Source: Giardia intestinalis (lineage: Eukaryota). Taken from it: a stretch of DNA of 64,000 bases. The stretch is taken from NCBI GenBank assembly GCA_000002435.2, contig CM018791.1. The stretch is one strand, 5' to 3'. A program made the position numbers and the translations under genes. Positions 7,690 to 55,954 of this stretch are shown here, one piece after another. The notes below the pieces were generated by a model that saw only the letters and a list, made by a program, of their open reading frames with translations, did not search any database and had not been told where the DNA came from. Position 1 is the first letter of the stretch. The number at the start of each line of letters is the position of its first letter.

Positions 7690-10600
7690 AGGTCCACTAG
7701 AAACGTCCAACCTGTCCTGGCATGCTGTTTCCCCGGTCAACGAGGTATGTCGATGGGCCAACCTGTCCTGGCATGCTGTTTCCCCGGTCAACGAGGTGCG
7801 TCGATGGGCCAACCTGTCCTGGCATGCTGTTTCCCCGGTCAACGAGGTGCGTCGATGGGCCAACCTGTCCTGGCATGCTGTTTCCCCGGTCAACGAGGTG
7901 CGTCGATGGGCCACCTGTCCTGGCATGCTGTTTCCCCGGTCAACGAGGTGCGTCGATGGGCCAACCTGTCCTGGCATGCTGTTTCCCCGGTCAACGAGGT
8001 GCGTCGATGGGCCAACCTGTCCTGGCATGCTGTTTCCCCGGTCAACGAGGTGCGTCGATGGGCCAACCTGTCCTGGCATGCTGTTTCCCCGGTCAACGAG
8101 GTGCGTCGATGGGCCAACCTGTCCTGGCATGCTGTTTCCCCGGTCAACGAGGTGCGTCGATGGGCCAACCTGTCCTGGCATGCTGTTTCCCCGGTCAACG
8201 AGGTGCGTCGATGGGCCAACCTGTCCTGGCATGCTGTTTCCCCGGTCAACGAGGTGCGTCGATGGGCCAACCTGTCCTGGCATGCTGTTTCCCCGGTCAA
8301 CGAGGTGCGTCGATGGGCCTGGCATGCTGTTTCCCGGTCAACGAGGTGCGTCGATGGGCCAACCTGTCCTGGCATGCTGTTTCCCCGGTCAACGAGGTGC
8401 GTCGATGGGCCAACCTGTCCTGGCATGCTGTTTCCCCGGTCAACGAGGTGCGTCGATGGGCCAACCTGTCCTGGCATGCTGTTTCCCCGGTCAACGAGGT
8501 GCGTCGATGGGCCAACCTGTCCTGGCATGCTGTTTCCCCGGTCAACGAGGTGCGTCGATGGGCCTAGCTGGCCCGGAGTCCCATTTCCCCGGTCAACGAG
8601 GTGCGTCGATGGGCCAACCTGTCCTGGCATGCTGTTTCCCCGGTCAACGAGGTATGTCGATGGGCCAACCTGTCCTGGCATGCTGTTTCCCCGGTCAACG
8701 AGGTGCGTCGATGGGCCAACCTGTCCTGGCATGCTGTTTCCCCGGTCAACGAGGTGCGTCGATGGGCCAACCTGTCCTGGCATGCTGTTTCCCCGGTCAA
8801 CGAGGTTGTCGATGGGCCTAGCTGGCCCGGAGTCCCATTTCCCCGGTCAACGAGGTGCGTCGATGGGCCAACCTGTCCTGGCATGCTGTTTCCCCGGTCA
8901 ACGAGGTGCGTCGATGGGCCAACCTGTCTGGCATGCTGTTCCCCGGTCAACGAGGTGCCGATGGCCAGCTGCGGGTTCCCCGGTCAACGAGGTGCGTCGA
9001 TGGGCCAACCTGTCCTGGCATGCTGTTCCCCGGTCAACGAGGTGCGTCGATGGGCCAGCCTGCCGGCATCCTTTCCCCCGGTCAACGAGGTGCGTCGATG
9101 GGCCAACCTGTCCTGGCATGCTGTTTCCCCGGTCAACGAGGTGCGTCGATGGGCCACCTGTCCTGGCATGCTGTTTCCCCGGTCAACGAGTGCGTCGATG
9201 GCCAACCTGTCCTGGCATGCTGTTTCCCCGGTCAACGAGGTGCGTCGATGGGCCAACCTGTCCTGGCATGCGTTTCCCCGGTCAACGAGGTGCGTCGATG
9301 GGCCAACCTGTCCTGGCATGCTGTTTCCCCGGTCAACGAGGTGCGTCGATGGGCCAACCTGTCCTGGCATGCTGTTTCCCCGGTCAACGAGGTGCGTCGA
9401 TGGGCCAACCTGTCCTGGCATGCTGTTTCCCCGGTCAACGAGGTGCGTCGATGGGCCAACCTGTCCTGGCATGCTGTTTCCCCGGTCAACGAGGTGCGTC
9501 GATGGGCCAACCTGTCCTGGCATGCTGTTTCCCCGGTCAACGAGGTGCGTCGATGGGCCAACCTGTCCTGGCATCCGTTTCCCCGGTCAACGAGGTGCGT
9601 CGATGGGCCAACCTGTCCTGGCATGCTGTTTCCCCGGTCAACGAGGTGCGTCGATGGGCCAACCTGTCCTGGCATGCTGTTTCCCCGGTCAACGAGGTGC
9701 GTCGATGGGCCACCTGCCTGGAGCGTTTCCCCGTCCGAGGTGCTCGATGGCCCTGTCCCTGTTTTCCCCGGTCAACGAGGTGCGTCGATGGGCCAACCTG
9801 TCCTGGCATGCTGTTTCCCCGGTCAACGAGGTGCGTCGATGGGCCACCTGTCCTGGCATGCCTGTTTCCCCGGTCAACGAGGTGCGTCGATGGGCCAACC
9901 TGTCCTGGCATGCTGTTTCCCCGGTCAACGAGGTGCGTCGATGGGCCAACCTGTCCTGGCATGCTGTTTCCCCGGTCAACGAGGTGCGTCGATGGGCCCT
10001 GCTGGCAGTCCATTTCCCCGGTCAACGAGGTATGTCGATGGGCCTAGCTGGCCCGGAGTCCTTTCCCCGGTCAACGAGGTGCGTCGATGGGCCAACCTGT
10101 CCTGGCATGCTGTTTCCCCGGTCAACGAGGTGCGTCGATGGGCCAACCTGTCTGGCATGCTGTTTCCCCGGTCAACGAGGTGCGTCGATGGGCAACCTGT
10201 CCTGGCATGCTGTTTCCCCGGTCAACGAGGTGCGTCGATGGGCCTAGCTGGCCCGGAGTCCCATTTCCCGGTCAACGAGGTACGTCGATGGGCCTAGCTG
10301 GCCCGGAGTCCATTCCCCGGTCAACGAGGTGCGTCGATGGGCCAACCTGTCCTGGCATGCTGTTTCCCCGTCAACGAGGTGCGTCGATGGGCCAACCTGT
10401 CCTGGCATGCTGTTTCCCCGGTCAACGAGGTGCGTCGATGGGCCTAGCTGGCCCGGAGTCCCATTTCCCCGGTCAACGAGGTATGTCGATGGGCCTAGCT
10501 GGCCCGGAGTCCCATTTCCCGGTCAACGAGGTGCGTCGATGGGCCAACCTGTCCTGGCATGCTGTTTCCCCGGTCAACGAGGTGCGTCGATGGCCACCTG

Positions 10601-13600
10601 TCCTGGCATGCTGTTCCCCGGTCACGAGGTGCGTCGATGGGCCAACCTGTCCTGGCATGCTGTTTCCCCGGTCAACGAGGTGCGTCGATGGGCCAGCTGG
10701 CCCGGAGTCCATTTCCCGGTCAACGAGGTGCGTCGATGGGCCCTGTCCTGGCAGTGTTCCCCGGTCAACGAGGTGCGTCGATGGGCCAGCTGGCCGGAGT
10801 CTTTTCCCGGTCAACGAGGTGCGTCGATGGGCCAACCTGTCCTGGCATGCTGTTTCCCCGGTCAACGAGGTGCGTCGATGGGCCAACCTGTCCTGGCATG
10901 CTGTTTCCCCGGTCAACGAGGTATTCGATGGGCCTGCTGGCCGGAGTCCATTTCCCCGGTCAACGAGGATGCGTCGATGGGCCATAGCTGGCCCGGAGTC
11001 CTTTCCCCGGTCAACGAGGTGCGTCGATGGGCCTAGCTGGCCCGGAGTCCTTTCCCCGGTCAACGAGGTGCGTCGATGGGCCAACCTGTCCTGGCATGCT
11101 GTTTCCCCGGTCAACGAGGTGCGTCGATGGGCCAACCTGTCCTGGCATGCTGTTTCCCCGGTCAACGAGGTGCGTCGATGGGCCAACCTGTCCTGGCATG
11201 CTGTTTCCCCGGTCAACGAGGTATGCTCGATGGGCCTAGTGGCCCGGAGTCCATTTCCCCGGTCAACGAGGTGCGTCGATGGGCCAACCTGTCCTGGCAT
11301 GCTGTTTCCCCGGTCAACGAGGTTGCTCGATGGGCCAACCTGTCCTGGCATGCTGTTTCCCCGGTCAACGAGGTGCGTCGATGGGCCAACCTGTCCTGGC
11401 ATGCTGTTCCCGGTCAACGAGGTGCGTCGATGGGCCAACCTGTCCTGGCATGCTGTTTCCCCGGTCAACGAGGCTATGTCGATGGGCCAACCTGTCCTGG
11501 CATGCTGTTTCCCCGGTCAACGAGGTGCGTCGATGGGCCAACCTGTCCTGGCATGCTGTTTCCCCGGTCAACGAGGTCGTCGATGGGCCAACCTGTCCTG
11601 GCATGCTGTTTCCCCGTCAACGAGGTTGTCGATGGGCCTAGCTGGCCCGGAGTCCCATTTCCCGGTCAACGAGGTTATGTCGATGGCCTAGCTGGCCGGA
11701 GTCCCATTTCCGGTCAACNNNNNNNNNNNNNNNNNNNNNNNNNNNNNNNNNNNNNNNNNNNNNNNNNNNNNNNNNNNNNNNNNNNNNNNNNNNNNNNNNN
11801 NNNNNNNNNNNNNNNNNNNNNNNNNNNNNNNNNNNNNNNNNNNNNNNNNNNNNNNNNNNNNNNNNNNNNNNNNNNNNNNNNNNNNNNNNNNNNNNNNNNN
11901 NNNNNNNNNNNNNNNNNNNNNNNNNNNNNNNNNNNNNNNNNNNNNNNNNNNNNNNNNNNNNNNNNNNNNNNNNNNNNNNNNNNNNNNNNNNNNNNNNNNN
12001 NNNNNNNNNNNNNNNNNNNNNNNNNNNNNNNNNNNNNNNNNNNNNNNNNNNNNNNNNNNNNNNNNNNNNNNNNNNNNNNNNNNNNNNNNNNNNNNNNNNN
12101 NNNNNNNNNNNNNNNNNNNNNNNNNNNNNNNNNNNNNNNNNNNNNNNNNNNNNNNNNNNNNNNNNNNNNNNNNNNNNNNNNNNNNNNNNNNNNNNNNNNN
12201 NNNNNNNNNNNNNNNNNNNNNNNNNNNNNNNNNNNNNNNNNNNNNNNNNNNNNNNNNNNNNNNNNNNNNNNNNNNNNNNNNNNNNNNNNNNNNNNNNNNN
12301 NNNNNNNNNNNNNNNNNNNNNNNNNNNNNNNNNNNNNNNNNNNNNNNNNNNNNNNNNNNNNNNNNNNNNNNNNNNNNNNNNNNNNNNNNNNNNNNNNNNN
12401 NNNNNNNNNNNNNNNNNNNNNNNNNNNNNNNNNNNNNNNNNNNNNNNNNNNNNNNNNNNNNNNNNNNNNNNNNNNNNNNNNNNNNNNNNNNNNNNNNNNN
12501 NNNNNNNNNNNNNNNNNNNNNNNNNNNNNNNNNNNNNNNNNNNNNNNNNNNNNNNNNNNNNNNNNNNNNNNNNNNNNNNNNNNNNNNNNNNNNNNNNNNN
12601 NNNNNNNNNNNNNNNNNNNNNNNNNNNNNNNNNNNNNNNNNNNNNNNNNNNNNNNNNNNNNNNNNNNNNNNNNNNNNNNNNNNNNNNNNNNNNNNNNNNN
12701 NNNNNNNNNNNNNNNNNNNNNNNNNNNNNNNNNNNNNNNNNNNNNNNNNNNNNNNNNNNNNNNNNNNNNNNNNNNNNNNNNNNNNNNNNNNNNNNNNNNN
12801 NNNNNNNNNNNNNNNNNNNNNNNNNNNNNNNNNNNNNNNNNNNNNNNNNNNNNNNNNNNNNNNNNNNNNNNNNNNNNNNNNNNNNNNNNNNNNNNNNNNN
12901 NNNNNNNNNNNNNNNNNNNNNNNNNNNNNNNNNNNNNNNNNNNNNNNNNNNNNNNNNNNNNNNNNNNNNNNNNNNNNNNNNNNNNNNNNNNNNNNNNNNN
13001 NNNNNNNNNNNNNNNNNNNNNNNNNNNNNNNNNNNNNNNNNNNNNNNNNNNNNNNNNNNNNNNNNNNNNNNNNNNNNNNNNNNNNNNNNNNNNNNNNNNN
13101 NNNNNNNNNNNNNNNNNNNNNNNNNNNNNNNNNNNNNNNNNNNNNNNNNNNNNNNNNNNNNNNNNNNNNNNNNNNNNNNNNNNNNNNNNNNNNNNNNNNN
13201 NNNNNNNNNNNNNNNNNNNNNNNNNNNNNNNNNNNNNNNNNNNNNNNNNNNNNNNNNNNNNNNNNNNNNNNNNNNNNNNNNNNNNNNNNNNNNNNNNNNN
13301 NNNNNNNNNNNNNNNNNNNNNNNNNNNNNNNNNNNNNNNNNNNNNNNNNNNNNNNNNNNNNNNNNNNNNNNNNNNNNNNNNNNNNNNNNNNNNNNNNNNN
13401 NNNNNNNNNNNNNNNNNNNNNNNNNNNNNNNNNNNNNNNNNNNNNNNNNNNNNNNNNNNNNNNNNNNNNNNNNNNNNNNNNNNNNNNNNNNNNNNNNNNN
13501 NNNNNNNNNNNNNNNNNNNNNNNNNNNNNNNNNNNNNNNNNNNNNNNNNNNNNNNNNNNNNNNNNNNNNNNNNNNNNNNNNNNNNNNNNNNNNNNNNNNN

Positions 13601-16600
13601 NNNNNNNNNNNNNNNNNNNNNNNNNNNNNNNNNNNNNNNNNNNNNNNNNNNNNNNNNNNNNNNNNNNNNNNNNNNNNNNNNNNNNNNNNNNNNNNNNNNN
13701 NNNNNNNNNNNNNNNNNNNNNNNNNNNNNNNNNNNNNNNNNNNNNNNNNNNNNNNNNNNNNNNNNNNNNNNNNNNNNNNNNNNNNNNNNNNNNNNNNNNN
13801 NNNNNNNNNNNNNNNNNNNNNNNNNNNNNNNNNNNNNNNNNNNNNNNNNNNNNNNNNNNNNNNNNNNNNNNNNNNNNNNNNNNNNNNNNNNNNNNNNNNN
13901 NNNNNNNNNNNNNNNNNNNNNNNNNNNNNNNNNNNNNNNNNNNNNNNNNNNNNNNNNNNNNNNNNNNNNNNNNNNNNNNNNNNNNNNNNNNNNNNNNNNN
14001 NNNNNNNNNNNNNNNNNNNNNNNNNNNNNNNNNNNNNNNNNNNNNNNNNNNNNNNNNNNNNNNNNNNNNNNNNNNNNNNNNNNNNNNNNNNNNNNNNNNN
14101 NNNNNNNNNNNNNNNNNNNNNNNNNNNNNNNNNNNNNNNNNNNNNNNNNNNNNNNNNNNNNNNNNNNNNNNNNNNNNNNNNNNNNNNNNNNNNNNNNNNN
14201 NNNNNNNNNNNNNNNNNNNNNNNNNNNNNNNNNNNNNNNNNNNNNNNNNNNNNNNNNNNNNNNNNNNNNNNNNNNNNNNNNNNNNNNNNNNNNNNNNNNN
14301 NNNNNNNNNNNNNNNNNNNNNNNNNNNNNNNNNNNNNNNNNNNNNNNNNNNNNNNNNNNNNNNNNNNNNNNNNNNNNNNNNNNNNNNNNNNNNNNNNNNN
14401 NNNNNNNNNNNNNNNNNNNNNNNNNNNNNNNNNNNNNNNNNNNNNNNNNNNNNNNNNNNNNNNNNNNNNNNNNNNNNNNNNNNNNNNNNNNNNNNNNNNN
14501 NNNNNNNNNNNNNNNNNNNNNNNNNNNNNNNNNNNNNNNNNNNNNNNNNNNNNNNNNNNNNNNNNNNNNNNNNNNNNNNNNNNNNNNNNNNNNNNNNNNN
14601 NNNNNNNNNNNNNNNNNNNNNNNNNNNNNNNNNNNNNNNNNNNNNNNNNNNNNNNNNNNNNNNNNNNNNNNNNNNNNNNNNNNNNNNNNNNNNNNNNNNN
14701 NNNNNNNNNNNNNNNNNNNNNNNNNNNNNNNNNNNNNNNNNNNNNNNNNNNNNNNNNNNNNNNNNNNNNNNNNNNNNNNNNNNNNNNNNNNNNNNNNNNN
14801 NNNNNNNNNNNNNNNNNNNNNNNNNNNNNNNNNNNNNNNNNNNNNNNNNNNNNNNNNNNNNNNNNNNNNNNNNNNNNNNNNNNNNNNNNNNNNNNNNNNN
14901 NNNNNNNNNNNNNNNNNNNNNNNNNNNNNNNNNNNNNNNNNNNNNNNNNNNNNNNNNNNNNNNNNNNNNNNNNNNNNNNNNNNNNNNNNNNNNNNNNNNN
15001 NNNNNNNNNNNNNNNNNNNNNNNNNNNNNNNNNNNNNNNNNNNNNNNNNNNNNNNNNNNNNNNNNNNNNNNNNNNNNNNNNNNNNNNNNNNNNNNNNNNN
15101 NNNNNNNNNNNNNNNNNNNNNNNNNNNNNNNNNNNNNNNNNNNNNNNNNNNNNNNNNNNNNNNNNNNNNNNNNNNNNNNNNNNNNNNNNNNNNNNNNNNN
15201 NNNNNNNNNNNNNNNNNNNNNNNNNNNNNNNNNNNNNNNNNNNNNNNNNNNNNNNNNNNNNNNNNNNNNNNNNNNNNNNNNNNNNNNNNNNNNNNNNNNN
15301 NNNNNNNNNNNNNNNNNNNNNNNNNNNNNNNNNNNNNNNNNNNNNNNNNNNNNNNNNNNNNNNNNNNNNNNNNNNNNNNNNNNNNNNNNNNNNNNNNNNN
15401 NNNNNNNNNNNNNNNNNNNNNNNNNNNNNNNNNNNNNNNNNNNNNNNNNNNNNNNNNNNNNNNNNNNNNNNNNNNNNNNNNNNNNNNNNNNNNNNNNNNN
15501 NNNNNNNNNNNNNNNNNNNNNNNNNNNNNNNNNNNNNNNNNNNNNNNNNNNNNNNNNNNNNNNNNNNNNNNNNNNNNNNNNNNNNNNNNNNNNNNNNNNN
15601 NNNNNNNNNNNNNNNNNNNNNNNNNNNNNNNNNNNNNNNNNNNNNNNNNNNNNNNNNNNNNNNNNNNNNNNNNNNNNNNNNNNNNNNNNNNNNNNNNNNN
15701 NNNNNNNNNNNNNNNNNNNNNNNNNNNNNNNNNNNNNNNNNNNNNNNNNNNNNNNNNNNNNNNNNNNNNNNNNNNNNNNNNNNNNNNNNNNNNNNNNNNN
15801 NNNNNNNNNNNNNNNNNNNNNNNNNNNNNNNNNNNNNNNNNNNNNNNNNNNNNNNNNNNNNNNNNNNNNNNNNNNNNNNNNNNNNNNNNNNNNNNNNNNN
15901 NNNNNNNNNNNNNNNNNNNNNNNNNNNNNNNNNNNNNNNNNNNNNNNNNNNNNNNNNNNNNNNNNNNNNNNNNNNNNNNNNNNNNNNNNNNNNNNNNNNN
16001 NNNNNNNNNNNNNNNNNNNNNNNNNNNNNNNNNNNNNNNNNNNNNNNNNNNNNNNNNNNNNNNNNNNNNNNNNNNNNNNNNNNNNNNNNNNNNNNNNNNN
16101 NNNNNNNNNNNNNNNNNNNNNNNNNNNNNNNNNNNNNNNNNNNNNNNNNNNNNNNNNNNNNNNNNNNNNNNNNNNNNNNNNNNNNNNNNNNNNNNNNNNN
16201 NNNNNNNNNNNNNNNNNNNNNNNNNNNNNNNNNNNNNNNNNNNNNNNNNNNNNNNNNNNNNNNNNNNNNNNNNNNNNNNNNNNNNNNNNNNNNNNNNNNN
16301 NNNNNNNNNNNNNNNNNNNNNNNNNNNNNNNNNNNNNNNNNNNNNNNNNNNNNNNNNNNNNNNNNNNNNNNNNNNNNNNNNNNNNNNNNNNNNNNNNNNN
16401 NNNNNNNNNNNNNNNNNNNNNNNNNNNNNNNNNNNNNNNNNNNNNNNNNNNNNNNNNNNNNNNNNNNNNNNNNNNNNNNNNNNNNNNNNNNNNNNNNNNN
16501 NNNNNNNNNNNNNNNNNNNNNNNNNNNNNNNNNNNNNNNNNNNNNNNNNNNNNNNNNNNNNNNNNNNNNNNNNNNNNNNNNNNNNNNNNNNNNNNNNNNN

Positions 16601-19600
16601 NNNNNNNNNNNNNNNNNNNNNNNNNNNNNNNNNNNNNNNNNNNNNNNNNNNNNNNNNNNNNNNNNNNNNNNNNNNNNNNNNNNNNNNNNNNNNNNNNNNN
16701 NNNNNNNNNNNNNNNNNNNNNNNNNNNNNNNNNNNNNNNNNNNNNNNNNNNNNNNNNNNNNNNNNNNNNNNNNNNNNNNNNNNNNNNNNNNNNNNNNNNN
16801 NNNNNNNNNNNNNNNNNNNNNNNNNNNNNNNNNNNNNNNNNNNNNNNNNNNNNNNNNNNNNNNNNNNNNNNNNNNNNNNNNNNNNNNNNNNNNNNNNNNN
16901 NNNNNNNNNNNNNNNNNNNNNNNNNNNNNNNNNNNNNNNNNNNNNNNNNNNNNNNNNNNNNNNNNNNNNNNNNNNNNNNNNNNNNNNNNNNNNNNNNNNN
17001 NNNNNNNNNNNNNNNNNNNNNNNNNNNNNNNNNNNNNNNNNNNNNNNNNNNNNNNNNNNNNNNNNNNNNNNNNNNNNNNNNNNNNNNNNNNNNNNNNNNN
17101 NNNNNNNNNNNNNNNNNNNNNNNNNNNNNNNNNNNNNNNNNNNNNNNNNNNNNNNNNNNNNNNNNNNNNNNNNNNNNNNNNNNNNNNNNNNNNNNNNNNN
17201 NNNNNNNNNNNNNNNNNNNNNNNNNNNNNNNNNNNNNNNNNNNNNNNNNNNNNNNNNNNNNNNNNNNNNNNNNNNNNNNNNNNNNNNNNNNNNNNNNNNN
17301 NNNNNNNNNNNNNNNNNNNNNNNNNNNNNNNNNNNNNNNNNNNNNNNNNNNNNNNNNNNNNNNNNNNNNNNNNNNNNNNNNNNNNNNNNNNNNNNNNNNN
17401 NNNNNNNNNNNNNNNNNNNNNNNNNNNNNNNNNNNNNNNNNNNNNNNNNNNNNNNNNNNNNNNNNNNNNNNNNNNNNNNNNNNNNNNNNNNNNNNNNNNN
17501 NNNNNNNNNNNNNNNNNNNNNNNNNNNNNNNNNNNNNNNNNNNNNNNNNNNNNNNNNNNNNNNNNNNNNNNNNNNNNNNNNNNNNNNNNNNNNNNNNNNN
17601 NNNNNNNNNNNNNNNNNNNNNNNNNNNNNNNNNNNNNNNNNNNNNNNNNNNNNNNNNNNNNNNNNNNNNNNNNNNNNNNNNNNNNNNNNNNNNNNNNNNN
17701 NNNNNNNNNNNNNNNNNNNNNNNNNNNNNNNNNNNNNNNNNNNNNNNNNNNNNNNNNNNNNNNNNNNNNNNNNNNNNNNNNNNNNNNNNNNNNNNNNNNN
17801 NNNNNNNNNNNNNNNNNNNNNNNNNNNNNNNNNNNNNNNNNNNNNNNNNNNNNNNNNNNNNNNNNNNNNNNNNNNNNNNNNNNNNNNNNNNNNNNNNNNN
17901 NNNNNNNNNNNNNNNNNNNNNNNNNNNNNNNNNNNNNNNNNNNNNNNNNNNNNNNNNNNNNNNNNNNNNNNNNNNNNNNNNNNNNNNNNNNNNNNNNNNN
18001 NNNNNNNNNNNNNNNNNNNNNNNNNNNNNNNNNNNNNNNNNNNNNNNNNNNNNNNNNNNNNNNNNNNNNNNNNNNNNNNNNNNNNNNNNNNNNNNNNNNN
18101 NNNNNNNNNNNNNNNNNNNNNNNNNNNNNNNNNNNNNNNNNNNNNNNNNNNNNNNNNNNNNNNNNNNNNNNNNNNNNNNNNNNNNNNNNNNNNNNNNNNN
18201 NNNNNNNNNNNNNNNNNNNNNNNNNNNNNNNNNNNNNNNNNNNNNNNNNNNNNNNNNNNNNNNNNNNNNNNNNNNNNNNNNNNNNNNNNNNNNNNNNNNN
18301 NNNNNNNNNNNNNNNNNNNNNNNNNNNNNNNNNNNNNNNNNNNNNNNNNNNNNNNNNNNNNNNNNNNNNNNNNNNNNNNNNNNNNNNNNNNNNNNNNNNN
18401 NNNNNNNNNNNNNNNNNNNNNNNNNNNNNNNNNNNNNNNNNNNNNNNNNNNNNNNNNNNNNNNNNNNNNNNNNNNNNNNNNNNNNNNNNNNNNNNNNNNN
18501 NNNNNNNNNNNNNNNNNNNNNNNNNNNNNNNNNNNNNNNNNNNNNNNNNNNNNNNNNNNNNNNNNNNNNNNNNNNNNNNNNNNNNNNNNNNNNNNNNNNN
18601 NNNNNNNNNNNNNNNNNNNNNNNNNNNNNNNNNNNNNNNNNNNNNNNNNNNNNNNNNNNNNNNNNNNNNNNNNNNNNNNNNNNNNNNNNNNNNNNNNNNN
18701 NNNNNNNNNNNNNNNNNNNNNNNNNNNNNNNNNNNNNNNNNNNNNNNNNNNNNNNNNNNNNNNNNNNNNNNNNNNNNNNNNNNNNNNNNNNNNNNNNNNN
18801 NNNNNNNNNNNNNNNNNNNNNNNNNNNNNNNNNNNNNNNNNNNNNNNNNNNNNNNNNNNNNNNNNNNNNNNNNNNNNNNNNNNNNNNNNNNNNNNNNNNN
18901 NNNNNNNNNNNNNNNNNNNNNNNNNNNNNNNNNNNNNNNNNNNNNNNNNNNNNNNNNNNNNNNNNNNNNNNNNNNNNNNNNNNNNNNNNNNNNNNNNNNN
19001 NNNNNNNNNNNNNNNNNNNNNNNNNNNNNNNNNNNNNNNNNNNNNNNNNNNNNNNNNNNNNNNNNNNNNNNNNNNNNNNNNNNNNNNNNNNNNNNNNNNN
19101 NNNNNNNNNNNNNNNNNNNNNNNNNNNNNNNNNNNNNNNNNNNNNNNNNNNNNNNNNNNNNNNNNNNNNNNNNNNNNNNNNNNNNNNNNNNNNNNNNNNN
19201 NNNNNNNNNNNNNNNNNNNNNNNNNNNNNNNNNNNNNNNNNNNNNNNNNNNNNNNNNNNNNNNNNNNNNNNNNNNNNNNNNNNNNNNNNNNNNNNNNNNN
19301 NNNNNNNNNNNNNNNNNNNNNNNNNNNNNNNNNNNNNNNNNNNNNNNNNNNNNNNNNNNNNNNNNNNNNNNNNNNNNNNNNNNNNNNNNNNNNNNNNNNN
19401 NNNNNNNNNNNNNNNNNNNNNNNNNNNNNNNNNNNNNNNNNNNNNNNNNNNNNNNNNNNNNNNNNNNNNNNNNNNNNNNNNNNNNNNNNNNNNNNNNNNN
19501 NNNNNNNNNNNNNNNNNNNNNNNNNNNNNNNNNNNNNNNNNNNNNNNNNNNNNNNNNNNNNNNNNNNNNNNNNNNNNNNNNNNNNNNNNNNNNNNNNNNN

Positions 19601-22600
19601 NNNNNNNNNNNNNNNNNNNNNNNNNNNNNNNNNNNNNNNNNNNNNNNNNNNNNNNNNNNNNNNNNNNNNNNNNNNNNNNNNNNNNNNNNNNNNNNNNNNN
19701 NNNNNNNNNNNNNNNNNNNNNNNNNNNNNNNNNNNNNNNNNNNNNNNNNNNNNNNNNNNNNNNNNNNNNNNNNNNNNNNNNNNNNNNNNNNNNNNNNNNN
19801 NNNNNNNNNNNNNNNNNNNNNNNNNNNNNNNNNNNNNNNNNNNNNNNNNNNNNNNNNNNNNNNNNNNNNNNNNNNNNNNNNNNNNNNNNNNNNNNNNNNN
19901 NNNNNNNNNNNNNNNNNNNNNNNNNNNNNNNNNNNNNNNNNNNNNNNNNNNNNNNNNNNNNNNNNNNNNNNNNNNNNNNNNNNNNNNNNNNNNNNNNNNN
20001 NNNNNNNNNNNNNNNNNNNNNNNNNNNNNNNNNNNNNNNNNNNNNNNNNNNNNNNNNNNNNNNNNNNNNNNNNNNNNNNNNNNNNNNNNNNNNNNNNNNN
20101 NNNNNNNNNNNNNNNNNNNNNNNNNNNNNNNNNNNNNNNNNNNNNNNNNNNNNNNNNNNNNNNNNNNNNNNNNNNNNNNNNNNNNNNNNNNNNNNNNNNN
20201 NNNNNNNNNNNNNNNNNNNNNNNNNNNNNNNNNNNNNNNNNNNNNNNNNNNNNNNNNNNNNNNNNNNNNNNNNNNNNNNNNNNNNNNNNNNNNNNNNNNN
20301 NNNNNNNNNNNNNNNNNNNNNNNNNNNNNNNNNNNNNNNNNNNNNNNNNNNNNNNNNNNNNNNNNNNNNNNNNNNNNNNNNNNNNNNNNNNNNNNNNNNN
20401 NNNNNNNNNNNNNNNNNNNNNNNNNNNNNNNNNNNNNNNNNNNNNNNNNNNNNNNNNNNNNNNNNNNNNNNNNNNNNNNNNNNNNNNNNNNNNNNNNNNN
20501 NNNNNNNNNNNNNNNNNNNNNNNNNNNNNNNNNNNNNNNNNNNNNNNNNNNNNNNNNNNNNNNNNNNNNNNNNNNNNNNNNNNNNNNNNNNNNNNNNNNN
20601 NNNNNNNNNNNNNNNNNNNNNNNNNNNNNNNNNNNNNNNNNNNNNNNNNNNNNNNNNNNNNNNNNNNNNNNNNNNNNNNNNNNNNNNNNNNNNNNNNNNN
20701 NNNNNNNNNNNNNNNNNNNNNNNNNNNNNNNNNNNNNNNNNNNNNNNNNNNNNNNNNNNNNNNNNNNNNNNNNNNNNNNNNNNNNNNNNNNNNNNNNNNN
20801 NNNNNNNNNNNNNNNNNNNNNNNNNNNNNNNNNNNNNNNNNNNNNNNNNNNNNNNNNNNNNNNNNNNNNNNNNNNNNNNNNNNNNNNNNNNNNNNNNNNN
20901 NNNNNNNNNNNNNNNNNNNNNNNNNNNNNNNNNNNNNNNNNNNNNNNNNNNNNNNNNNNNNNNNNNNNNNNNNNNNNNNNNNNNNNNNNNNNNNNNNNNN
21001 NNNNNNNNNNNNNNNNNNNNNNNNNNNNNNNNNNNNNNNNNNNNNNNNNNNNNNNNNNNNNNNNNGTTTCCCGGTCAACGAGGTATGTCGATGGGCCTAG
21101 GCTGGCCCGGAGTCCCATTTCCCCCGGTCAACGAGGTATGTCGATGGGCCTAGCTGGCCCGGAGTTCCTGTTTCCCCGGTCAACGAGGTGCGTCGATGGG
21201 CCAACCTGTCCTGGCATGCTGTTTCCCCGGTCAACGAGGTGCGTCGATGGGCCAACCTGTCCTGGCATGCTGTTTCCCCGGTCAACGAGGTGCGTCGATG
21301 GGCCAACCTGTCCTGGCATGCCTGTTTTCCCCGGTCAACGGGTGGTCGATGGGCAACTTCCTGGCTCTTTTCCCCGGTCACGAGGTGTCGATGGGCCTAG
21401 CTGGCCGGGTCCCATTTCCCCGGTCAACGAGGTGCGTCGATGGGCCAACCTGTCCTGGCATGCCTGTTTCCCGGTCAACGAGGTGCGTCGATGGGCCAAC
21501 CTGTCCGGCATGTCCGTTTCCCCCGGTCAACGAGGTGCGTCGATGGGCCAACCTGTCCTGGCATGCGTTTCCCCGGTCAACGAGGTGCGTCGATGGGCCA
21601 ACCTGTCCTGGCATGCTGTTTCCCCGGTCAACGAGGTATGTCGATGGGCCTAGCTGGCCCGGAGTCCCATTTCCCCGGTCAACGAGGTGCGTCGATGGGC
21701 CAACCTGTCCCGGCATGCCTTTCCCCGGTCAACGAGGTGCGTCGATGGGCCAGCTGGCCCGGATCCTTTTCCCCGGTCAACGAGGTGCGTCGATGGGCCA
21801 ACCTGTCCTGGCATGCTGTTTCCCCCGGTCAACGAGGTGCGTCGATGGGCCAACCTGTCCTGGCAGCTGTTTCCCCGGTCAACGAGGTGCGTCGATGGGC
21901 CAACCTGTCCTGGCATGCTGTTTCCCCGGTCAACGAGGTATGTCGATGGGCCAGCTGCCCGGATCCCATTTCCCCGGTCAACGAGGTGCGTCGATGGGCC
22001 AACCTGTCCTGGCATGCTGTTTCCCCGGTCAACGAGGGTGATGGCCCCCCCGAGGTGCGTCGATGGGCCAACCTGTCCTGGCATGCTGTTTCCCCGGTCA
22101 ACGAGGTATGTCGATGGCCAACCTGTCCTGGCATGCTGTTTCCCCGGTCAACGAGGTGCGTCGATGGGCCAACCTGTCCTGGCATGCTGTTTCCCCGGTC
22201 AACGAGGTATGTCGATGGGCCAACCTGTCCTGGCATGCTGTTTCCCCGGTCAACGAGGTAGTCGATGGGCCACTGCCGGATCCTTCCCCGGTCAACGAGG
22301 TATGTCGATGGGCCTAGCTGGCCCGGAGTCCCATTTCCCCGGTCAACGAGGTGCGTTCGAGGGCCGTCGATGGGCCAACCTGTCCTGGCATGCTGTTTCC
22401 CCGGTCAACGAGGTGCGTCGATGGGCCAACCTGTCCTGGCATGCTGTTTCCCCGGTCAACGAGGTGCGTCGATGGGCCAACCTGTCCTGGCATGCTGTTT
22501 CCCCGGTCAACGAGGTATGTCGATGGGCCTAGCTGGCCCGGAGTCCCATTTCCCCGGTCAACGAGGTATGTCGATGGGCCTAGCTGGCCCGGAGTCCCAT

Positions 22601-23106
22601 TTCCCCGGTCAACGAGGTGCGTCGATGGGCCAACCTGTCCTGGCATGCTGTTTCCCCGGTCAACGAGGTGCGTCGATGGGCCAACCTGTCCTGGCATGCT
22701 GTTTCCCCGGTCAACGAGGTGCGTCGATGGGCCAACCTGTCCTGGCATGCTGTTTCCCCGGTCAACGAGGTGCGTCGATGGGCCAACCTGTCCTGGCATG
22801 CTGTTTCCCCGGTCAACGAGGTATGTCGATGGGCCAACCTGTCCTGGCATGCTGTTTCCCCGGTCAACGAGGTGCGTCGATGGGCCAACCTGTCCTGGCA
22901 TGCTGTTTCCCCGGTCAACGAGGTGCGTCGATGGGCCAACCTGTCCTGGCATGCTGTTTCCCCGGTCAACGAGGTGCGTCGATGGGCCAACCTGTCCTGG
23001 CATGCTGTTTCCCCGGTCAACGAGGTGCGTCGATGGGCCAACCTGTCCTGGCATGCTGTTTCCCCGGTCAACGAGGTGCGTCGATGGGCCAACCTGTCCT
23101 GGCATG
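7690..23106. repeat. 51-bp tandem satellite array, ~79 resolved units on the left + ~40 on the right of an assembly gap; consensus ccaacctgtcctggcatgctgtttccccggtcaacgaggtgcgtcgatggg
   Basis: Period measured directly: 'cgaggt' recurs at 7741, 7792, 7843 (51 bp). Two unit variants alternate: A (...ccaacctgtcctggcatgctgttt...gaggtgcgtcg) and B (...cctagctggcccggagtcccattt...gaggtatgtcg). The edges (7707-8800, 22350-23106) are near-perfect. The interior (8900-11718, 21066-22300) carries many 1-2 bp indels. Right edge at 23106 (ggcatg|atatct). Confidence 0.95.
11719..21065. other. assembly gap (9,347 N) inside the satellite array
   Basis: Uninterrupted run of n from 11719 to 21065, with the same 51-bp repeat on both flanks. 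The true array length is therefore unknown. Confidence 0.98.
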
Positions 23107-25631
23107 ATATCTATCTGAGACTTATCATTACTATACTTAGGTGGCATATTATATGTTCCTTTAACTAGATAATGATTCAGATTAGAAACATTTTGGGCTC
23201 CAATGTCATAATAGCTAGATTGCTGATTCTTTTGATGACTCACTGAATTTTGCATCAAGGAGCAATTGACACCCTTATCAACAAGCACTTGATTAATTTC
23301 GCAAGTAGAACCATTGTGAATAAATGCACCATCGTTTAAATCTCCGCTTAGATTTGTAGACGGATCAGCTAATGATTTAACACTCAAATGCTCCTCTTTC
23401 CATGCTACATGGCTTGATTGCTGGCTTAGGACTTCCGCCTCCCTCTGCGATTCGTACTGCATACTGGGATCTTTGGCTTGTAAAACACTTCTGTTGCTAA
23501 GGTAATTAAGCTCAGGTGTGTAACCACTTAATTGGCGTGTGTTTTCATTTGGCAAAGTATCATACAATGTGCTATCTTTAACAGAGAAAAGAGAGCTGTT
23601 ATCTCCCCTATACCCTTGCTGGTTAGATACGCTTAGCTCCCGAGCGCCGGAGATACTTATGGTATTGTAAGGTGTATTGTCTTCATGAGATAGCTCCTTC
23701 ACAGTCTCGTTTTCTCCCGGTTCTGGGTTAACAAGTGTGCTATAGCTCAAACCCCGTGCATGAGACGCCGTGATGGTAACATCATAAGGTGCTGATGGTG
23801 AAACCTGTGAACGCACGGGAAGATTTGGATCCCAACAATAGCTATGATCATACGGTGATACTGCTGTTAGAGGGGTGTTTATTTCTGACGTACTAATGTC
23901 GGACCTATCTGGCTTCTGCATCAATGTATTCTTATACTCCGTTGTATTATAAGTTGCTCTCTTCGTTTGTCGTGTGTAATCAGTCATATCATGGATTGTC
24001 TCAGCCTTGTCGTCTGGGCGCGCAGGGAATGTGTCTCCTGGCTTTCCGTATGCATAGCTCAGTACGCGGGCGCTTTTTACTAAAATCGGCCCGTCATTTC
24101 TATAAGGCGTGAGCCCCATATCGCTTCCAACTAGATTAGTTTCCATATCAGAAAAGATATCCTTCTGTGTTTTCTCTTTGTAGTCTTTTACGAGTTTATT
24201 CTCGTCTAACAATTCTTCTCTTGTTTGTGCTACCTTCTCCAGTTTATCTTTCCAATAGTTAGCCCATGATATGTCGTCAGAAATAGTGACGGGCAGTGTT
24301 CCTGAAGTAGTACTGAGAACATTCTGTGTGTCTCCAGCCACAATTGCTGTGGGCATTGTAGCCAGCAGTGTTGCATTAGGTGTAAGTGCTATCTTCTTAG
24401 TGTCTTCAGATAACTGTACTTGGTGATCAATTGCGGTTGATTTCCCCGGTTCTATTGAATTACTTACATTCCTAAATAATGTCTGTAAATTGCTTGTTGC
24501 AGCGGCACTATATCCATAGTTCTCTGGGCAGGTATTACTGTAATCGTTAGATTTGAATGTCTGCTGCTGAGACTTTGTCGCTACTAATTGATCTTGTGGA
24601 GCAGGTTTCGAAGAAGCTAAGTTGCCATATTGAGATTGGTGTAATGGGACAGTGATAAGGGGGTCTTGCTGAGATTTCGTCCAGTATGCCGGTGCTTTGG
24701 AAACCTGGCTTCGTAGGCTTTCAAACGCGGAGGGGAGCTGAGGAGGAGGCACGATGGGGCCGTGCTCCTTCAAATAGTCACGGTACACAGACCATGCTTT
24801 ATGTATTCGTGGATGCTTGAGTAACTCATCTGCAGGAGGACGACTCCTGGGGTTATGATCGAGAAGCAGATTAATTATTCTGGTTAGCTCTGCACTGTAG
24901 CCGTGATATGATGTCTTTACAAAGGAACTGAGAGATTGTATGGCTTCCTGCTTGTTGGCACATGTCTCTCTGTACCGGCGAAGCGTGCACATTTCGTGTA
25001 GTACACATCCTAACATGAACATGTCGACCTTCGCCCCATACTTATGCCCCAAGAGCATTTCAGGCGCCATGTAAACATAATCGCCAACCTGTTCAGAGAT
25101 CTCAGACGCCTGACTCAAAGAGACTGCTTGACGCATACCGCCTAAAACACACGCTGTGTTGTTAGACAAGAATATGGTTTCTGGACGTATGTTTCGATGA
25201 ATTACTATTCCGACTTCGGGACAATTCAATTTATAAGGTGAATGTAGGTAGGCAAGCACATCGCAGAGCTGGGCAAGAACCATCCAAATAGTGCTTTCGT
25301 CATAGAGATGCGCAGCCTCAAATCTGTCAACGATTTGCTGCCGTAAGCTCTGGCTTAAATATGCATCCATGAAGACATAGTACGTGTGGCGGAACTGGTC
25401 GTGGAAAACATTATGAATCTGAAGAATTCCTGGGTGCTGAAGTCTCTGTGTTAGTTGATACTGTCGATCTACATGCTCTCGAAGAGTAGTTGCAGATTGA
25501 GTGTAGTCTATAACTTTGCAGACAACGTCGTGTGAGGTCCACGTATCGTGCGCCCAATGAATCCTAGAATGCTGCCCATGGGTAAGAAGAGGCCCAAGGC
25601 GGTACCTATCCATCAGGAGAGTCGTGAGCAT
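22314..25631 (-). CDS. NEK-like protein kinase (probably inactive: HRN for HRD, no DFG), long S/T/N-rich linker, C-terminus reading ~15.5 units into the 51-bp satellite; true 3' end uncertain
   Basis: ATG verified at 25631..25629. N-terminal kinase fold (MDRYRLGPLL...VVCKVID...HRNIRPETIFL...YMAPEML...DMFMLGCVLHEMC). The unique sequence ...KYSNDKSQIDI joins MPGQVGPSTHLVDRGNS repeats at 23106 with no stop. The first stop is at 22314, caused by a repeat variant. Confidence 0.6.
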   Translation of the reverse strand: MLTTLLMDRYRLGPLLTHGQHSRIHWAHDTWTSHDVVCKVIDYTQSATTLREHVDRQYQLTQRLQHPGILQIHNVFHDQFRHTYYVFMDAYLSQSLRQQIVDRFEAAHLYDESTIWMVLAQLCDVLAYLHSPYKLNCPEVGIVIHRNIRPETIFLSNNTACVLGGMRQAVSLSQASEISEQVGDYVYMAPEMLLGHKYGAKVDMFMLGCVLHEMCTLRRYRETCANKQEAIQSLSSFVKTSYHGYSAELTRIINLLLDHNPRSRPPADELLKHPRIHKAWSVYRDYLKEHGPIVPPPQLPSAFESLRSQVSKAPAYWTKSQQDPLITVPLHQSQYGNLASSKPAPQDQLVATKSQQQTFKSNDYSNTCPENYGYSAAATSNLQTLFRNVSNSIEPGKSTAIDHQVQLSEDTKKIALTPNATLLATMPTAIVAGDTQNVLSTTSGTLPVTISDDISWANYWKDKLEKVAQTREELLDENKLVKDYKEKTQKDIFSDMETNLVGSDMGLTPYRNDGPILVKSARVLSYAYGKPGDTFPARPDDKAETIHDMTDYTRQTKRATYNTTEYKNTLMQKPDRSDISTSEINTPLTAVSPYDHSYCWDPNLPVRSQVSPSAPYDVTITASHARGLSYSTLVNPEPGENETVKELSHEDNTPYNTISISGARELSVSNQQGYRGDNSSLFSVKDSTLYDTLPNENTRQLSGYTPELNYLSNRSVLQAKDPSMQYESQREAEVLSQQSSHVAWKEEHLSVKSLADPSTNLSGDLNDGAFIHNGSTCEINQVLVDKGVNCSLMQNSVSHQKNQQSSYYDIGAQNVSNLNHYLVKGTYNMPPKYSNDKSQIDIMPGQVGPSTHLVDRGNSMPGQVGPSTHLVDRGNSMPGQVGPSTHLVDRGNSMPGQVGPSTHLVDRGNSMPGQVGPSTHLVDRGNSMPGQVGPSTYLVDRGNSMPGQVGPSTHLVDRGNSMPGQVGPSTHLVDRGNSMPGQVGPSTHLVDRGNSMPGQVGPSTHLVDRGNGTPGQLGPSTYLVDRGNGTPGQLGPSTYLVDRGNSMPGQVGPSTHLVDRGNSMPGQVGPSTHLVDRGNSMPGQVGPSTALERTSLTGEMGLRAS

Positions 25632-25655
25632 TGAGAGGCAAATTTAAGAATAAAT

Positions 25656-27113
25656 TTACTCATTTTGGATAGCATCATCGACGAATTGAGACATATATGG
25701 TGTTTTGACACTAAATACAGAAGAATCAAGCCAATTTCTTTTCAAGATAGGCGATGCTTGAGCAGAATTGTTGTCTTGTTCTATTGTTCTAGTATGGTTA
25801 TCCTGGCCACCATCAAAATAGGCCATAGTATTAGATTGACGTATGGCTTGCAAAGTGTGATCATCGGCAGAGCTACATGATTGAATTTTATGCTGCTCTT
25901 TATCTTGAACGAAGTCCTGTACGATTGGTCTAAGATGACTAGGGCTCTGCTTCCTTTGTCGTTTATGCTTTAATGCATGCGATTGCTGCTTGTTGATCAG
26001 TAAGCTATCATCAAGAATAGAGCAACCACGCTTCTCTTCAAAGTCAAGAAGCAGAATATCATTGTAACGCGCCACGTAGTGAGCCTTGATGTTCGCAGCA
26101 GAGCCAGCTGAAGCACTTGCAAGCTCGGAAGACTCGTGGCTTTCAATGCTTGCTTGCGTGCACAAGAGATTGATGGACGAATCATCGTCTGCATGAACAC
26201 TACAAAACTGAGCATCCTGTGGCTGTAGCTCTTCTTCCTTTTCCTCTTCTTCTGTAAGCCCGTAAGTCCCCAAGCGAGCCTTATATGATTGAATCATTTC
26301 GCGAATAATTCCGTTAACAGATAGCACATCAACTGCTAGGCGGCATTCAGGCTCTAGTTCTAGGAAGGTGTTTATTATAGACGTCAAACTAGTGGAGTAC
26401 AGGGGCATCTGCACCTTTCTCTGCAGCTTTCCTAGCTTTTGTAAGGCATCCATTGGGTTTAGTGCAAGACAGAAAGGCCTAAACGTACAGAGTTCATATA
26501 TTATGCAACCCAAAGACCAAATGTCAGATTTTGTAGTAGCAACCCCTGTCCGCAGTAGCTCCGGTGCTCTATACTCTGCTGTGTGCACAGGAAAGCACTT
26601 GTAATACATGAGCTTGCGGGAGAGACTCAGAAAGCTCACAGTAATGATATCTAAGTTATCGATAAAGATAGATTCTGGTGTCAATGCATAAAGTAAAGCC
26701 TGGTCATGATTGGGCCCAACATCGTGTAGATAAGATAGAAGATCAATGAACTGAGATAGTATATACCAGACGCTCCGTTCTGGAAGGTGCGAGCCCCGAT
26801 CCAGAGCCTTTCGGCGTCTGATGTATTGACTCAGGGTCTCCTGCTTAACTTGCTCCATAAACAGGAAGTAACGTTGACCAGCACGATCATGCAACACGCT
26901 GAGATAATGAACAAGCAGAGGGTGTCGAAGCCGCTTAATTAGAGCAACCTCTCTGTGGAGCACAGCGGCCTCATGTGGAGACAGCCGACCGTACTCATAA
27001 ACCTTACAGAGACATGACTTCTGAATGCGTAGATCCGCTGCTTCGTATATTATGCTGTAGGAGCATGCCTTGAAGGGTTTTCCAAGACAAAACCTGTCGA
27101 GAATTCTAATCAT
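25656..27113 (-). CDS. NEK-like kinase paralog (pseudokinase-like; HRD and DFG absent)
   Basis: Track start 27209 is TTG. The frame upstream of it hits a stop at 27269..27267 with no ATG. The first ATG is 27113..27111, giving MIRILDRFCLGKPF... like the other paralogs (M..RY.L...G). Kinase C-lobe SDIWSLGCIIYELCTF is present. Confidence 0.7.
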   Translation of the reverse strand: MIRILDRFCLGKPFKACSYSIIYEAADLRIQKSCLCKVYEYGRLSPHEAAVLHREVALIKRLRHPLLVHYLSVLHDRAGQRYFLFMEQVKQETLSQYIRRRKALDRGSHLPERSVWYILSQFIDLLSYLHDVGPNHDQALLYALTPESIFIDNLDIITVSFLSLSRKLMYYKCFPVHTAEYRAPELLRTGVATTKSDIWSLGCIIYELCTFRPFCLALNPMDALQKLGKLQRKVQMPLYSTSLTSIINTFLELEPECRLAVDVLSVNGIIREMIQSYKARLGTYGLTEEEEKEEELQPQDAQFCSVHADDDSSINLLCTQASIESHESSELASASAGSAANIKAHYVARYNDILLLDFEEKRGCSILDDSLLINKQQSHALKHKRQRKQSPSHLRPIVQDFVQDKEQHKIQSCSSADDHTLQAIRQSNTMAYFDGGQDNHTRTIEQDNNSAQASPILKRNWLDSSVFSVKTPYMSQFVDDAIQNE

Positions 27114-27214
27114 TAATTCTAACCGTTTTTTGATCCTTTGATTCAAGTCAGAGCCCGCGGACGAGCTGCAAACAGACAGCGAAATAATTACGCTCACTAC
27201 CCTCCACAAACAAC

Positions 27215-28354
27215 TTAGTCGGCAAGAATTGTCCCTGGAGCAGTTAGTATCGACGACGTACCATGTTCAGACGACACTGTGGGGATACGCTTTGACCTTT
27301 CTGATGATGTTAGCCCAAACTGGGACACCAGCTCTCGATTTAACGTACAGCAGTTTCCCACTGGCTTCCCACAAACACAAAGAAGATCATGTTGGATCTC
27401 ACTGGAGAGCATTGGAGATTGAGCAGGTTGTGTCTTCCGTAGTGCTTCGTTATGAGAAATGACCCGCCTATACGTTCTCCATATATCGCAGACTGTATTC
27501 AGCTTCAAGATTTGCTTTGCATAGATACGCTGGCTAGGCTCTGGAGCAAGCATCTGAGAAAGAAGCGAGATTATATTGGCATCTTTACCGGTCAGTAGAG
27601 GGTCACTTTTGAAGGAGGGCGGTGCTGAGATGGAGTGTAGAATCTCTGACAAGCACGTCCCTTGAATGTACGGCACTCCGAGATAGAACTCATACATGAA
27701 GCATCCTAAGGACCAGATGTCTGAAGCCCACGTAGCTTGCTTACCCATCAAGATCTCTGGAGAAAGGTAGCGGGCGGTATTTGCAGACTGGCAATCAACG
27801 TTATTCGTTTCAATGTATTTGGACATTCGTATCTGTGCCACCGTTACCACTCCCAGATTATCCAGATAAATGCCAGCAGGGTCTAGAGAGCGCAGAATGA
27901 CTGTACTGATGTCCGGTGCATTTCTCTTAGACGGACTATGAAGATAAGCAAGAAGTTCCGCCAATTGCATCAGGACGAGCCAAAAGGTCTGCTTACTTGG
28001 GCTGGAAAATGTAGGGAGCTGATAGCTTCCTGTTCCAAAACGTAACCGTTGGTGCATCTTTAAACTATCTGTGCGCATGTCCTTCATGACCAAAAACGAT
28101 GAACCTATAGAGTCTCCCTCAGCTATCTCCAAATATTCCATCAAATTTGGATGTCTAAGTGTGCGCGTCAGTGATATATTCAAGTGCAACTGCGAGAGCA
28201 ACGAGAGTGAGAGCTTTGAGTAAATCAATCTCTTACACACACACGGTCTATAAGTATACCGATCAACAGCTAAATATAGAAACCCATGAGCTGTCTTCTG
28301 GCAAACGCTCCCCAGCTCGTACCGTTTCCCTATTACGATGCTAGTTTTCATCAT
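27215..28354 (-). CDS. NEK-like kinase paralog (pseudokinase-like) with C-terminal CVCGKPVGNCC cysteine motif
   Basis: ATG ATG verified at 28354..28349. IGKRYELGSVCQKTAHGFLYLA...CVCKRLIY...SDIWSLGCFMYEF. No HRD/DFG motifs. Confidence 0.7.
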   Translation of the reverse strand: MMKTSIVIGKRYELGSVCQKTAHGFLYLAVDRYTYRPCVCKRLIYSKLSLSLLSQLHLNISLTRTLRHPNLMEYLEIAEGDSIGSSFLVMKDMRTDSLKMHQRLRFGTGSYQLPTFSSPSKQTFWLVLMQLAELLAYLHSPSKRNAPDISTVILRSLDPAGIYLDNLGVVTVAQIRMSKYIETNNVDCQSANTARYLSPEILMGKQATWASDIWSLGCFMYEFYLGVPYIQGTCLSEILHSISAPPSFKSDPLLTGKDANIISLLSQMLAPEPSQRIYAKQILKLNTVCDIWRTYRRVISHNEALRKTQPAQSPMLSSEIQHDLLCVCGKPVGNCCTLNRELVSQFGLTSSERSKRIPTVSSEHGTSSILTAPGTILAD

Positions 28355-28418
28355 CTGCCCACACAGTTTTTGAAAACCGTAGGCTTAAAGCATTAACAAG
28401 GGATCAAAACAAATATCT

Positions 28419-55898: not shown

Positions 55899-55954
55899 GC
55901 CACACCATATGTCAATAAGTGAATGGCTGCTTGGAAATCATTTCTGTTATAAAA

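Follow-up and report, generated by a model that had tools for sequence, protein, structure and literature searches.

The 51-bp tandem array of a Giardia intestinalis WB chromosome as the probable C-terminal coding region of the Nek pseudokinase gene GL50803_114469

Introduction

The ice-nucleation proteins of bacteria are long β-solenoids of 16-residue units, and MARP-1 and MARP-2 of Trypanosoma brucei carry repeats of 38 amino acids (aa) in a protist cytoskeleton. Such high-copy repeat proteins of protist cytoskeletons are very large and are built almost wholly from short tandem units, which are near-identical and homogenised at the DNA level, and their genes often break genome assemblies. 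Here we analyse a 51-bp tandem array of Giardia intestinalis, located in a 64,000-nucleotide (nt) stretch of contig CM018791.1 (assembly GCA_000002435.2, hereafter the window), and ascribe it, with a probability of roughly 85%, to one gene on the minus strand, the pseudokinase gene GL50803_114469, whose C-terminal part it would encode. The encoded protein would resemble MARP-1/2 in its giant repetitive build, but the sequences are unrelated and the MARPs have no kinase domain.

Both the gene and its repeat have been catalogued before. In Additional file 1 of Manning et al. 2011 (Genome Biol 12:R66), GL50803_114469 (GK273) is listed under 'Other / Nek / Nek-Unclassified' as 'Dead Nek - missing D166, D184' with '15 copies' of the repeat, and mention is made of a further 'hypothetical assemblage A protein' that has the repeat as well. 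The gene described there is the one studied here, as the N-terminal MLTTLLMDRYRLG... is identical, the repeat MPGQVGPSTHLVDRGNS is the same, D166 and D184 are missing, and there are no ankyrin repeats. In the simplest view, that further protein would be the 3′ block of GL50803_114469, cut off by a break in the old assembly. What is new is the scale: both sides now stand on one chromosome, with 119 units sequenced and about 302 implied. According to the same study, 71% of the Giardia Neks lack catalytic residues and are proposed to be scaffolds, and a number of Neks, when tagged, were located at distinct structures of the cytoskeleton.

The edges of the array share the frame of a kinase ORF and of a stop codon

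The unit of the array is 51 bp, that is, 17 codons, and occurs in two types, A encoding MPGQVGPSTHLVDRGNS and B encoding TPGQLGPSTYLVDRGNG. An open reading frame (ORF) running from 25631 to 22314 begins with a kinase domain and enters the repeat at residue 843 without a break (...KSQIDI-MPGQVGPSTHLVDRGNS-MPGQVGPSTHLVDRGNS...). It continues through about 14.5 units until an 11-bp insertion ends the in-frame run, and the product of the ORF as assembled has 1,105 aa. At the far edge of the array, the repeat frame reads ...GNSMPGQVGPSTYLVDRGNSMPGQVGRF (ending GNSMPGQVGRF) and is followed by TAG. The array is therefore bracketed by an ORF on the start side and a stop codon on the other, both being in the phase of the 17-aa peptide. 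Both junctions were reproduced exactly in independent Illumina contigs (Logan), which end about 30 bp into the array. An earlier note, made from the letters of the window alone, had taken the array for the only multi-kb non-genic element of the window; instead, it sits inside an ORF, in frame with the kinase part as well as with the stop.

If the run of N in the middle of the array is correctly sized, arithmetic predicts a coding sequence (CDS) of about 17.9 kb with about 5,977 codons, and a protein of about 6,000 aa with a mass of about 0.6 MDa. One open frame would probably extend through the whole array and across the gap, and the product would consist of a dead kinase head, a linker of 568 aa, about 300 near-identical 17-aa units, mostly MPGQVGPSTHLVDRGNS with about 20% TPGQLGPSTYLVDRGNG, and the terminus MPGQVGRF before the stop. 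From the repeat, the tryptic peptides GNSMPGQVGPSTHLVDR and GNGTPGQLGPSTYLVDR are predicted.

Inspection of the kinase motifs suggested that the head is inactive. The Lys of VAIK is kept (VCKV, K39), and in an alignment with the neighbouring Neks, K39 and the APE motif are invariant, but HRD is changed to HRN and DFG to LGG. Therefore, the catalytic triad K72/D166/D184 is incomplete, both Asp being missing, and HRN and LGG are found in the orthologues of P15 and assemblage B as well. On these grounds the domain is predicted to be catalytically dead, that is, a pseudokinase. The placement in the Nek family is taken from Manning et al. 2011 and from the name 'Kinase, NEK' under which NCBI lists the P15 orthologue, as the Pfam match gives Pkinase only, with no assignment at the level of Nek. 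No Pfam match at E ≤ 1, to Ank or any other domain, was obtained in the linker or the repeat, although ankyrin repeats or a coiled coil behind the kinase domain are typical, if not obligatory, of Giardia Neks. Nor did a credible family emerge when 13 repeat units and the linker were compared by sequence with Pfam and PDB.

The short spacer upstream of the ATG (Table 1) is presumed to be a short promoter/initiator of the Giardia type, and a spacing of 24 nt is likewise present at the P15 and assemblage B loci. A perfect AGTRAAY poly(A) signal was not found within 80 nt past the WB stop; in assemblage B, AGTAAAC is located about 35 nt downstream.

The repeat peptide is conserved between assemblages

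A search of about 5.8 billion proteins gave two orthologues, EFO64379.1 of P15 (assemblage E, 949 aa) and KWX12190.1 of assemblage B (894 aa), and ESU43930.1 (962 aa) was added from the cluster members of the latter. All three have the dead kinase domain, the linker and the same C-terminal 17-aa repeat, in 3-7 in-frame copies. The upstream Nek genes are conserved at both the P15 and the assemblage B loci. The P15 contig stops about 100 bp past the gene, so that the downstream side was compared with assemblage B only, where the downstream genes are conserved.

In the P15 DNA, about 6.3 units are followed by ATG CCG GGC CAG GTG GGT TGT TTC TGA, encoding MPGQVGCF*, which is the same terminus as MPGQVGRF* of WB. 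The annotated C-terminus of the P15 protein (...GHRARWVRPRTSLIGETAC...) is the repeat read out of frame (contig ACVC01000096.1, L010 6690-6700) because of a single GGG to GG deletion, probably a 454 homopolymer error. In assemblage B, 2.7 or 6.7 units were found, all in frame and arranged as a true 34-aa dimer of MPGQMTPSAHLVDRGNG and GPGQLAPSTHLVDRGNS, and the C-terminal tail is different (GFYNSII).

When the A unit of WB was compared with the majority unit of P15, 7 of the 51 nucleotides differed, and all seven differences were at third positions and synonymous. In a simulation, seven random substitutions left the peptide unaltered in about 1 in 100,000 trials (P ~ 1e-5). Between WB and P15, the amino acid identity is 100% for the repeat peptide, 94.5% for the kinase domain and 80.9% for the linker (71.9% for the linker of WB against assemblage B), and silent changes are found in 41% of the repeat codons versus 20-27% in the rest of the gene. 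This result indicates, at the level of sequence comparison, that the repeat peptide is under purifying selection. As the units are near-identical within a lineage and carry fixed silent differences between lineages, the pattern points to concerted evolution under purifying selection at the peptide level. Slippage or unequal exchange between the 51-bp units may expand the array and vary its size.

The antisense frame that shares the wobble positions was examined in the same way. For the A unit of WB against P15 it is nearly as good, with six of the seven changes silent. The coding frame has more synonymous codon changes than the antisense frame between the A and B units of WB (4 vs 3) and between the A unit and assemblage B (6 vs 3), and the comparison of the B unit of WB with the P15 variant unit slightly favours the antisense frame (5 vs 4). 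Between A and B of WB, synonymous changes are commoner in the coding frame than in any other frame. The antisense frame is continuous with none of the flanking ORFs.

Composition and order of the units

Tandem Repeats Finder reported period 51 in two blocks, at 7707-11675 (79.8 copies, 90% matches, 5% indels, score 6204) and at 21066-23106 (40 copies, 81% matches). The 17-nt core of the unit matched 115 times at ≤2 mismatches, against 0.02 expected by chance, and all 115 matches were on the minus strand and within the two blocks. The interval from anchor to anchor was exactly 51 bp in 69 of 117 cases. The GC content is 0.63 in the array and 0.43-0.51 in the flanks. These results bear out the 17-codon array and the assembly gap described in the earlier note; the limits given there, 7690-23106, need correction, as the repeat extends from 7700 to 23105. 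This span corresponds to 302 units with the gap taken at its assembled size, and the part actually sequenced comprises approximately 6,059 nt and 119 units (Table 1).

Units A and B differ at 11 nt, which amount to four synonymous codon changes and four replacements (S/G, M/T, V/L and H/Y), mostly conservative. About 79% of the units are A and about 21% B, the latter scattered singly or in runs of 2-3, as in the order of the 5′ block, AAAAAAAAABBAAAB?AAAAABAAA?ABAAAAB?AAABB. Both unit types of the earlier note are therefore real, but the regular alternation in a higher-order pattern that it proposed is not; a regular A/B higher-order repeat in WB was rejected from the irregular unit order, and a period-102 row of Tandem Repeats Finder for the right block reflects the scattered B units. 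Strict linkage of the gcg/atg (His/Tyr) variant to the unit type was not seen either. Five of the six frames had been described as free of stops, with Met at the start of every unit. Both statements are correct for A units only: B units have no such Met, and with them stops occur in three of the six frames, two more than with A, leaving three open. The coding frame stays open in A and in B.

Table 1. Features of the gene GL50803_114469 and its repeat array in the window
Feature	Position	Strand	Remark
Putative complete CDS of GL50803_114469	7697-25631	-	ATG at 25631, TAG at 7697-7699
AT-rich intergenic spacer	25632-25655	-	24 nt, ATTTATTCTTAAATTTGCCTCTCA; separates the ATG from the stop codon of the Nek gene upstream
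Protein kinase domain	24810-25589	-	aa 15-274; Pfam Pkinase, E = 5.6e-30
Linker	23106-24809	-	aa 275-842 (568 aa); Ser/Thr/Asn/Gln-rich, low complexity
Repeat block, 5′ (N-terminal side)	21066-23105	-	~40 units; first 13 clean and in frame
Assembly gap	11719-21065	.	9,347 N, equivalent to ~183 units
Repeat block, 3′ (C-terminal side)	7700-11718	-	~79 units; the last is the partial unit MPGQVGRF
TAG stop in the repeat coding frame	7697-7699	-	9 nt past the last full repeat phase; P15 equivalent MPGQVGCF-TGA

Predicted form of the repeat

A model of 13 units was calculated by AlphaFold2 with no alignment, and gave a mean predicted local distance difference test (pLDDT) score of 84.6 and a predicted template modelling (pTM) score of 0.77, the five models ranging over 78-85. 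In the model, each 17 residues form one coil with two short strands (GQV and HLVD). If the model is right, the repeat may work like the β-solenoids of the ice-nucleation type, but it differs from them in that neither a significant fold match nor a Pfam or PDB sequence match was found and in that the model may be an artefact of AlphaFold2. Foldseek against PDB gave no significant match (best E = 0.11), and the nearest folds, all non-significant, were right-handed and left-handed β-helices (LβH) and bactofilin. A β-solenoid is accordingly a weak hypothesis for the repeat, and the alternative is a disordered Pro/Gly-rich chain, Gly and Pro making up 30% of the residues.

The dead kinase domain probably docks the protein or acts as a scaffold, a role already put forward for other dead Neks of Giardia, and the repeat would supply length, either as a β-solenoid rod of about 300 coils and about 145 nm, at about 0.48 nm per coil, or as a flexible Pro/Gly-rich tether; either form might be placed in the Giardia cytoskeleton. 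That GL50803_114469 gives rise to a pseudokinase of ~6,000 aa and 0.6 MDa with such a rod or tether, an overlooked giant ruler or scaffold of the cytoskeleton whose length is very different between assemblages, is a doubtful extension, to which we give far less credit than to the assignment of the array to the gene.

Frameshifts, array size and rival explanations

Several observations weigh against one gene being read through the whole array. In the assembly, the length of 51 out of about 115 units breaks the frame, and the given sequence is no single ORF. The 9.3-kb gap cannot be read, so that continuity of the frame there is an extrapolation from both sides. Other assemblies, those of P15 and assemblage B made from 454 or short reads, show 3-7 copies only, which would fit either a huge size peculiar to WB or a collapse of the array in those assemblies. 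None of the ~5.8 billion proteins searched is a WB protein of this gene. In the current WB proteome, GL50803_114469 seems to lack a protein entry, and the current annotators did not call it. Expression is indicated solely by the serial analysis of gene expression (SAGE) values in the table of Manning et al. 2011 (R-value 3.1, max 13.7), and translation of the repeat is deduced from sequence. As for the predicted form, the antisense frame, used as a control in AlphaFold2, was also periodic-β (mean pLDDT 66.2, range 48-66 over five models, pTM 0.56), and AlphaFold2 is reported to make confident yet unrealistic β-solenoids for perfect repeats (PMC11795689). Moreover, enrichment of the deletions in homopolymers was not shown by a rough tally, in which 30 fell in runs of two or more, though 51% of the positions are in such runs. 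This tally counted about 78 deleted and about 34 inserted bases after 88 spurious pairs from a one-base anchor offset were discounted, and we do not claim that the indels are homopolymer errors, only that they cluster toward the gap.

The distribution of the frameshifts is telling. Counted per ten units, those deviating from 51 bp number 1, 4, 8 and 7 from the 5′ flank to the gap and 6, 7, 7, 7, 4, 4, 1 and 2 from the gap to the 3′ flank. Since the density of indels rises toward the gap from both sides and the edges are clean, the indels are best read as consensus errors near contig ends, and the 1-bp indels are probably errors of assembly. Real decay of old tandem arrays usually hits the edges most. 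Deterioration toward contig ends is the pattern expected of long-read consensus or gap-extension sequence at low effective coverage. Frameshifts induced by PacBio in genes are also reported by Xu et al. 2020, whose chromosome-scale assembly, made from PacBio reads and an optical map with gap sizes taken from the latter, is most likely the source of the window.

This distribution bears directly on the proposal that the coding repeat has decayed, so that only the first ~15 units would be translated (1,105 aa) and the remainder would be a non-coding satellite grown from the 3′ end. The 51 frameshifting units, the stop of the ORF at 22314, the gene model of Manning et al. with its 15 copies and the apparent lack of a WB protein entry are all in line with it. 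However, indels that are fewest at the unique flanks are the signature of consensus error, the 3′-most units are clean and in phase with a stop whose position is conserved in P15, and both the A and B variants keep the coding frame open; we regard decay as improbable. Still less credible, in our judgement, is an array that is artificially long, with a true size of a few to a few tens of units and a 15-kb span that would be due to contigs mis-joined or over-extended and to a gap of the wrong size. In P15 and assemblage B, the assemblies do cross the locus with 3-7 units, and sequence quality near the gap is poor, but 454 and short-read assemblies are expected to collapse arrays of this kind, and in the short-read contigs examined, which come from many WB-type samples, the locus is cut at both edges of the array. 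Furthermore, about 6.06 kb of repeat (119 units) was truly sequenced with many distinct A/B orders, and the gap was sized by the optical map in a chromosome-scale assembly. The mean PacBio read of the 2020 project was only about 8.7 kb (3.6 Gb in 411,835 reads), and for this reason an array of 15 kb was left open.

The array does look like centromeric or structural satellite DNA in being a long, homogeneous, GC-rich tandem array at which the assembly of a compact genome was not closed, and Giardia centromeres are not mapped in the searchable literature, where no paper on mapping cenH3 of Giardia was found. A structural or centromere-associated satellite or a recombination hotspot with incidental codon periodicity, two of the three explanations offered by the earlier note, might thus be considered, but we think this scarcely credible. 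Unlike such DNA, the array is coding and shares the frame of a kinase ORF and of a stop codon; it is under selection at the peptide level, as each of the seven positions at which its unit departs from the P15 consensus is a silent change; and it is short in the sister lineages, the assemblage B loci holding 3-7 copies in the same gene between conserved flanking genes. In addition, a centromere repeat is normally present on every chromosome, whereas Manning et al. found this repeat in the present gene and one hypothetical protein only. Coding constraint and short orthologous arrays thus leave the possible centromere role unsupported, and of the three candidates the remaining one, an expanded coding minisatellite, was the correct one. 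What had been framed as an unexplained satellite is, in all probability, the C-terminal coding region of GL50803_114469, with a peptide conserved across assemblages.

Annotation of the locus

The KAE accessions of the 2020 WB annotation rise along the window and across the gap, with 698 and 700 on one side and 702 on the other. KAE8302700 and KAE8302702 flank the locus, and the number between them probably belongs to a Nek of 513 aa. The older XP numbers come from separate series on either side of the gap and count in opposite directions there. It is from this numbering that the assembly of Xu et al. 2020 was taken as the most likely source of the window. In the searchable literature the repeat peptide was not found, and the gene number is not mentioned in the main text of any searchable paper. 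The supplements of a 2026 localisation atlas contain neither 114469 nor 31144.

Neighbouring genes and other repeats in the window

Five ORFs of the window, encoding Nek kinases, a PP2C phosphatase and an ankyrin-repeat protein, match proteins of G. intestinalis (duodenalis) WB clone C6 exactly. Around the array the window is densely packed with genes and intron-poor, as expected for Giardia; the genes encode PP2C, the ankyrin protein, five tandem kinases, HMG-CoA synthase, a histone H3 variant, asparagine synthase, a RING protein, myotubularin, a VSP and two more kinases. The five tandem Nek-type kinase genes are clustered at 22314-32290 on the minus strand, the repeat gene being the last member, and the two further kinase genes lie 30 kb off the cluster at 52980-58075 on the plus strand. 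DFG is absent in all six kinases aligned (four members of the cluster and the two distal genes), and HRD is mostly lost.

The gene of the histone H3 variant (38109-38588, minus strand; 159 aa, KAE8302709.1) is located about 15 kb from the array. Pfam gives Histone and CENP-T_C for this protein, and the gene is no evidence for a centromere. The VSP gene (Pfam VSP, E = 9e-85) at 48582-50717 on the minus strand fills a GC-rich patch at 48-51 kb.

Two more codon-periodic repeats were observed. At 34084-34518, 4.8 perfect copies of a 90-bp unit encode the 30-aa unit DESYQRAATPECEESAEEPLAAPAPLDPAK within the hypothetical protein GL50803_0016230 (33871-36540, minus strand). This protein has 889 aa in the window and 799 aa in isolate DH, and several short-read contigs give it 769 aa, which is due either to variation in copy number or to collapse in assembly. 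At 63750-64000, a repeat of 66 bp (22 codons, 98% matches) is cut by the end of the window; one of its minus frames reads VEEPEEARLAEPAEPVEEPEAP..., and one plus frame is likewise open.

Implications

With the array assigned to GL50803_114469, an apparent anomaly is removed, as the compact genome no longer holds a coding-periodic satellite that lacks an explanation. The assignment also shows what lies in an internal gap of the Giardia WB reference, probably one of the few that are left. As the gene seems to lack a WB protein entry, proteomic, localisation and kinome studies would miss what is possibly the largest protein of the parasite. If the giant protein is real, it would be invisible in all proteomic and localisation screens, because its gene spans one of the last gaps of the reference and seems to lack a protein entry. 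The remaining interest of the locus lies in its scale, in the clean selection signal and in the fact that the current reference proteome appears to lack it. If the full frame is true, the array would be a clean natural case of concerted evolution under peptide-level selection, and may serve as a variable number tandem repeat (VNTR) for typing strains among assemblage A isolates.

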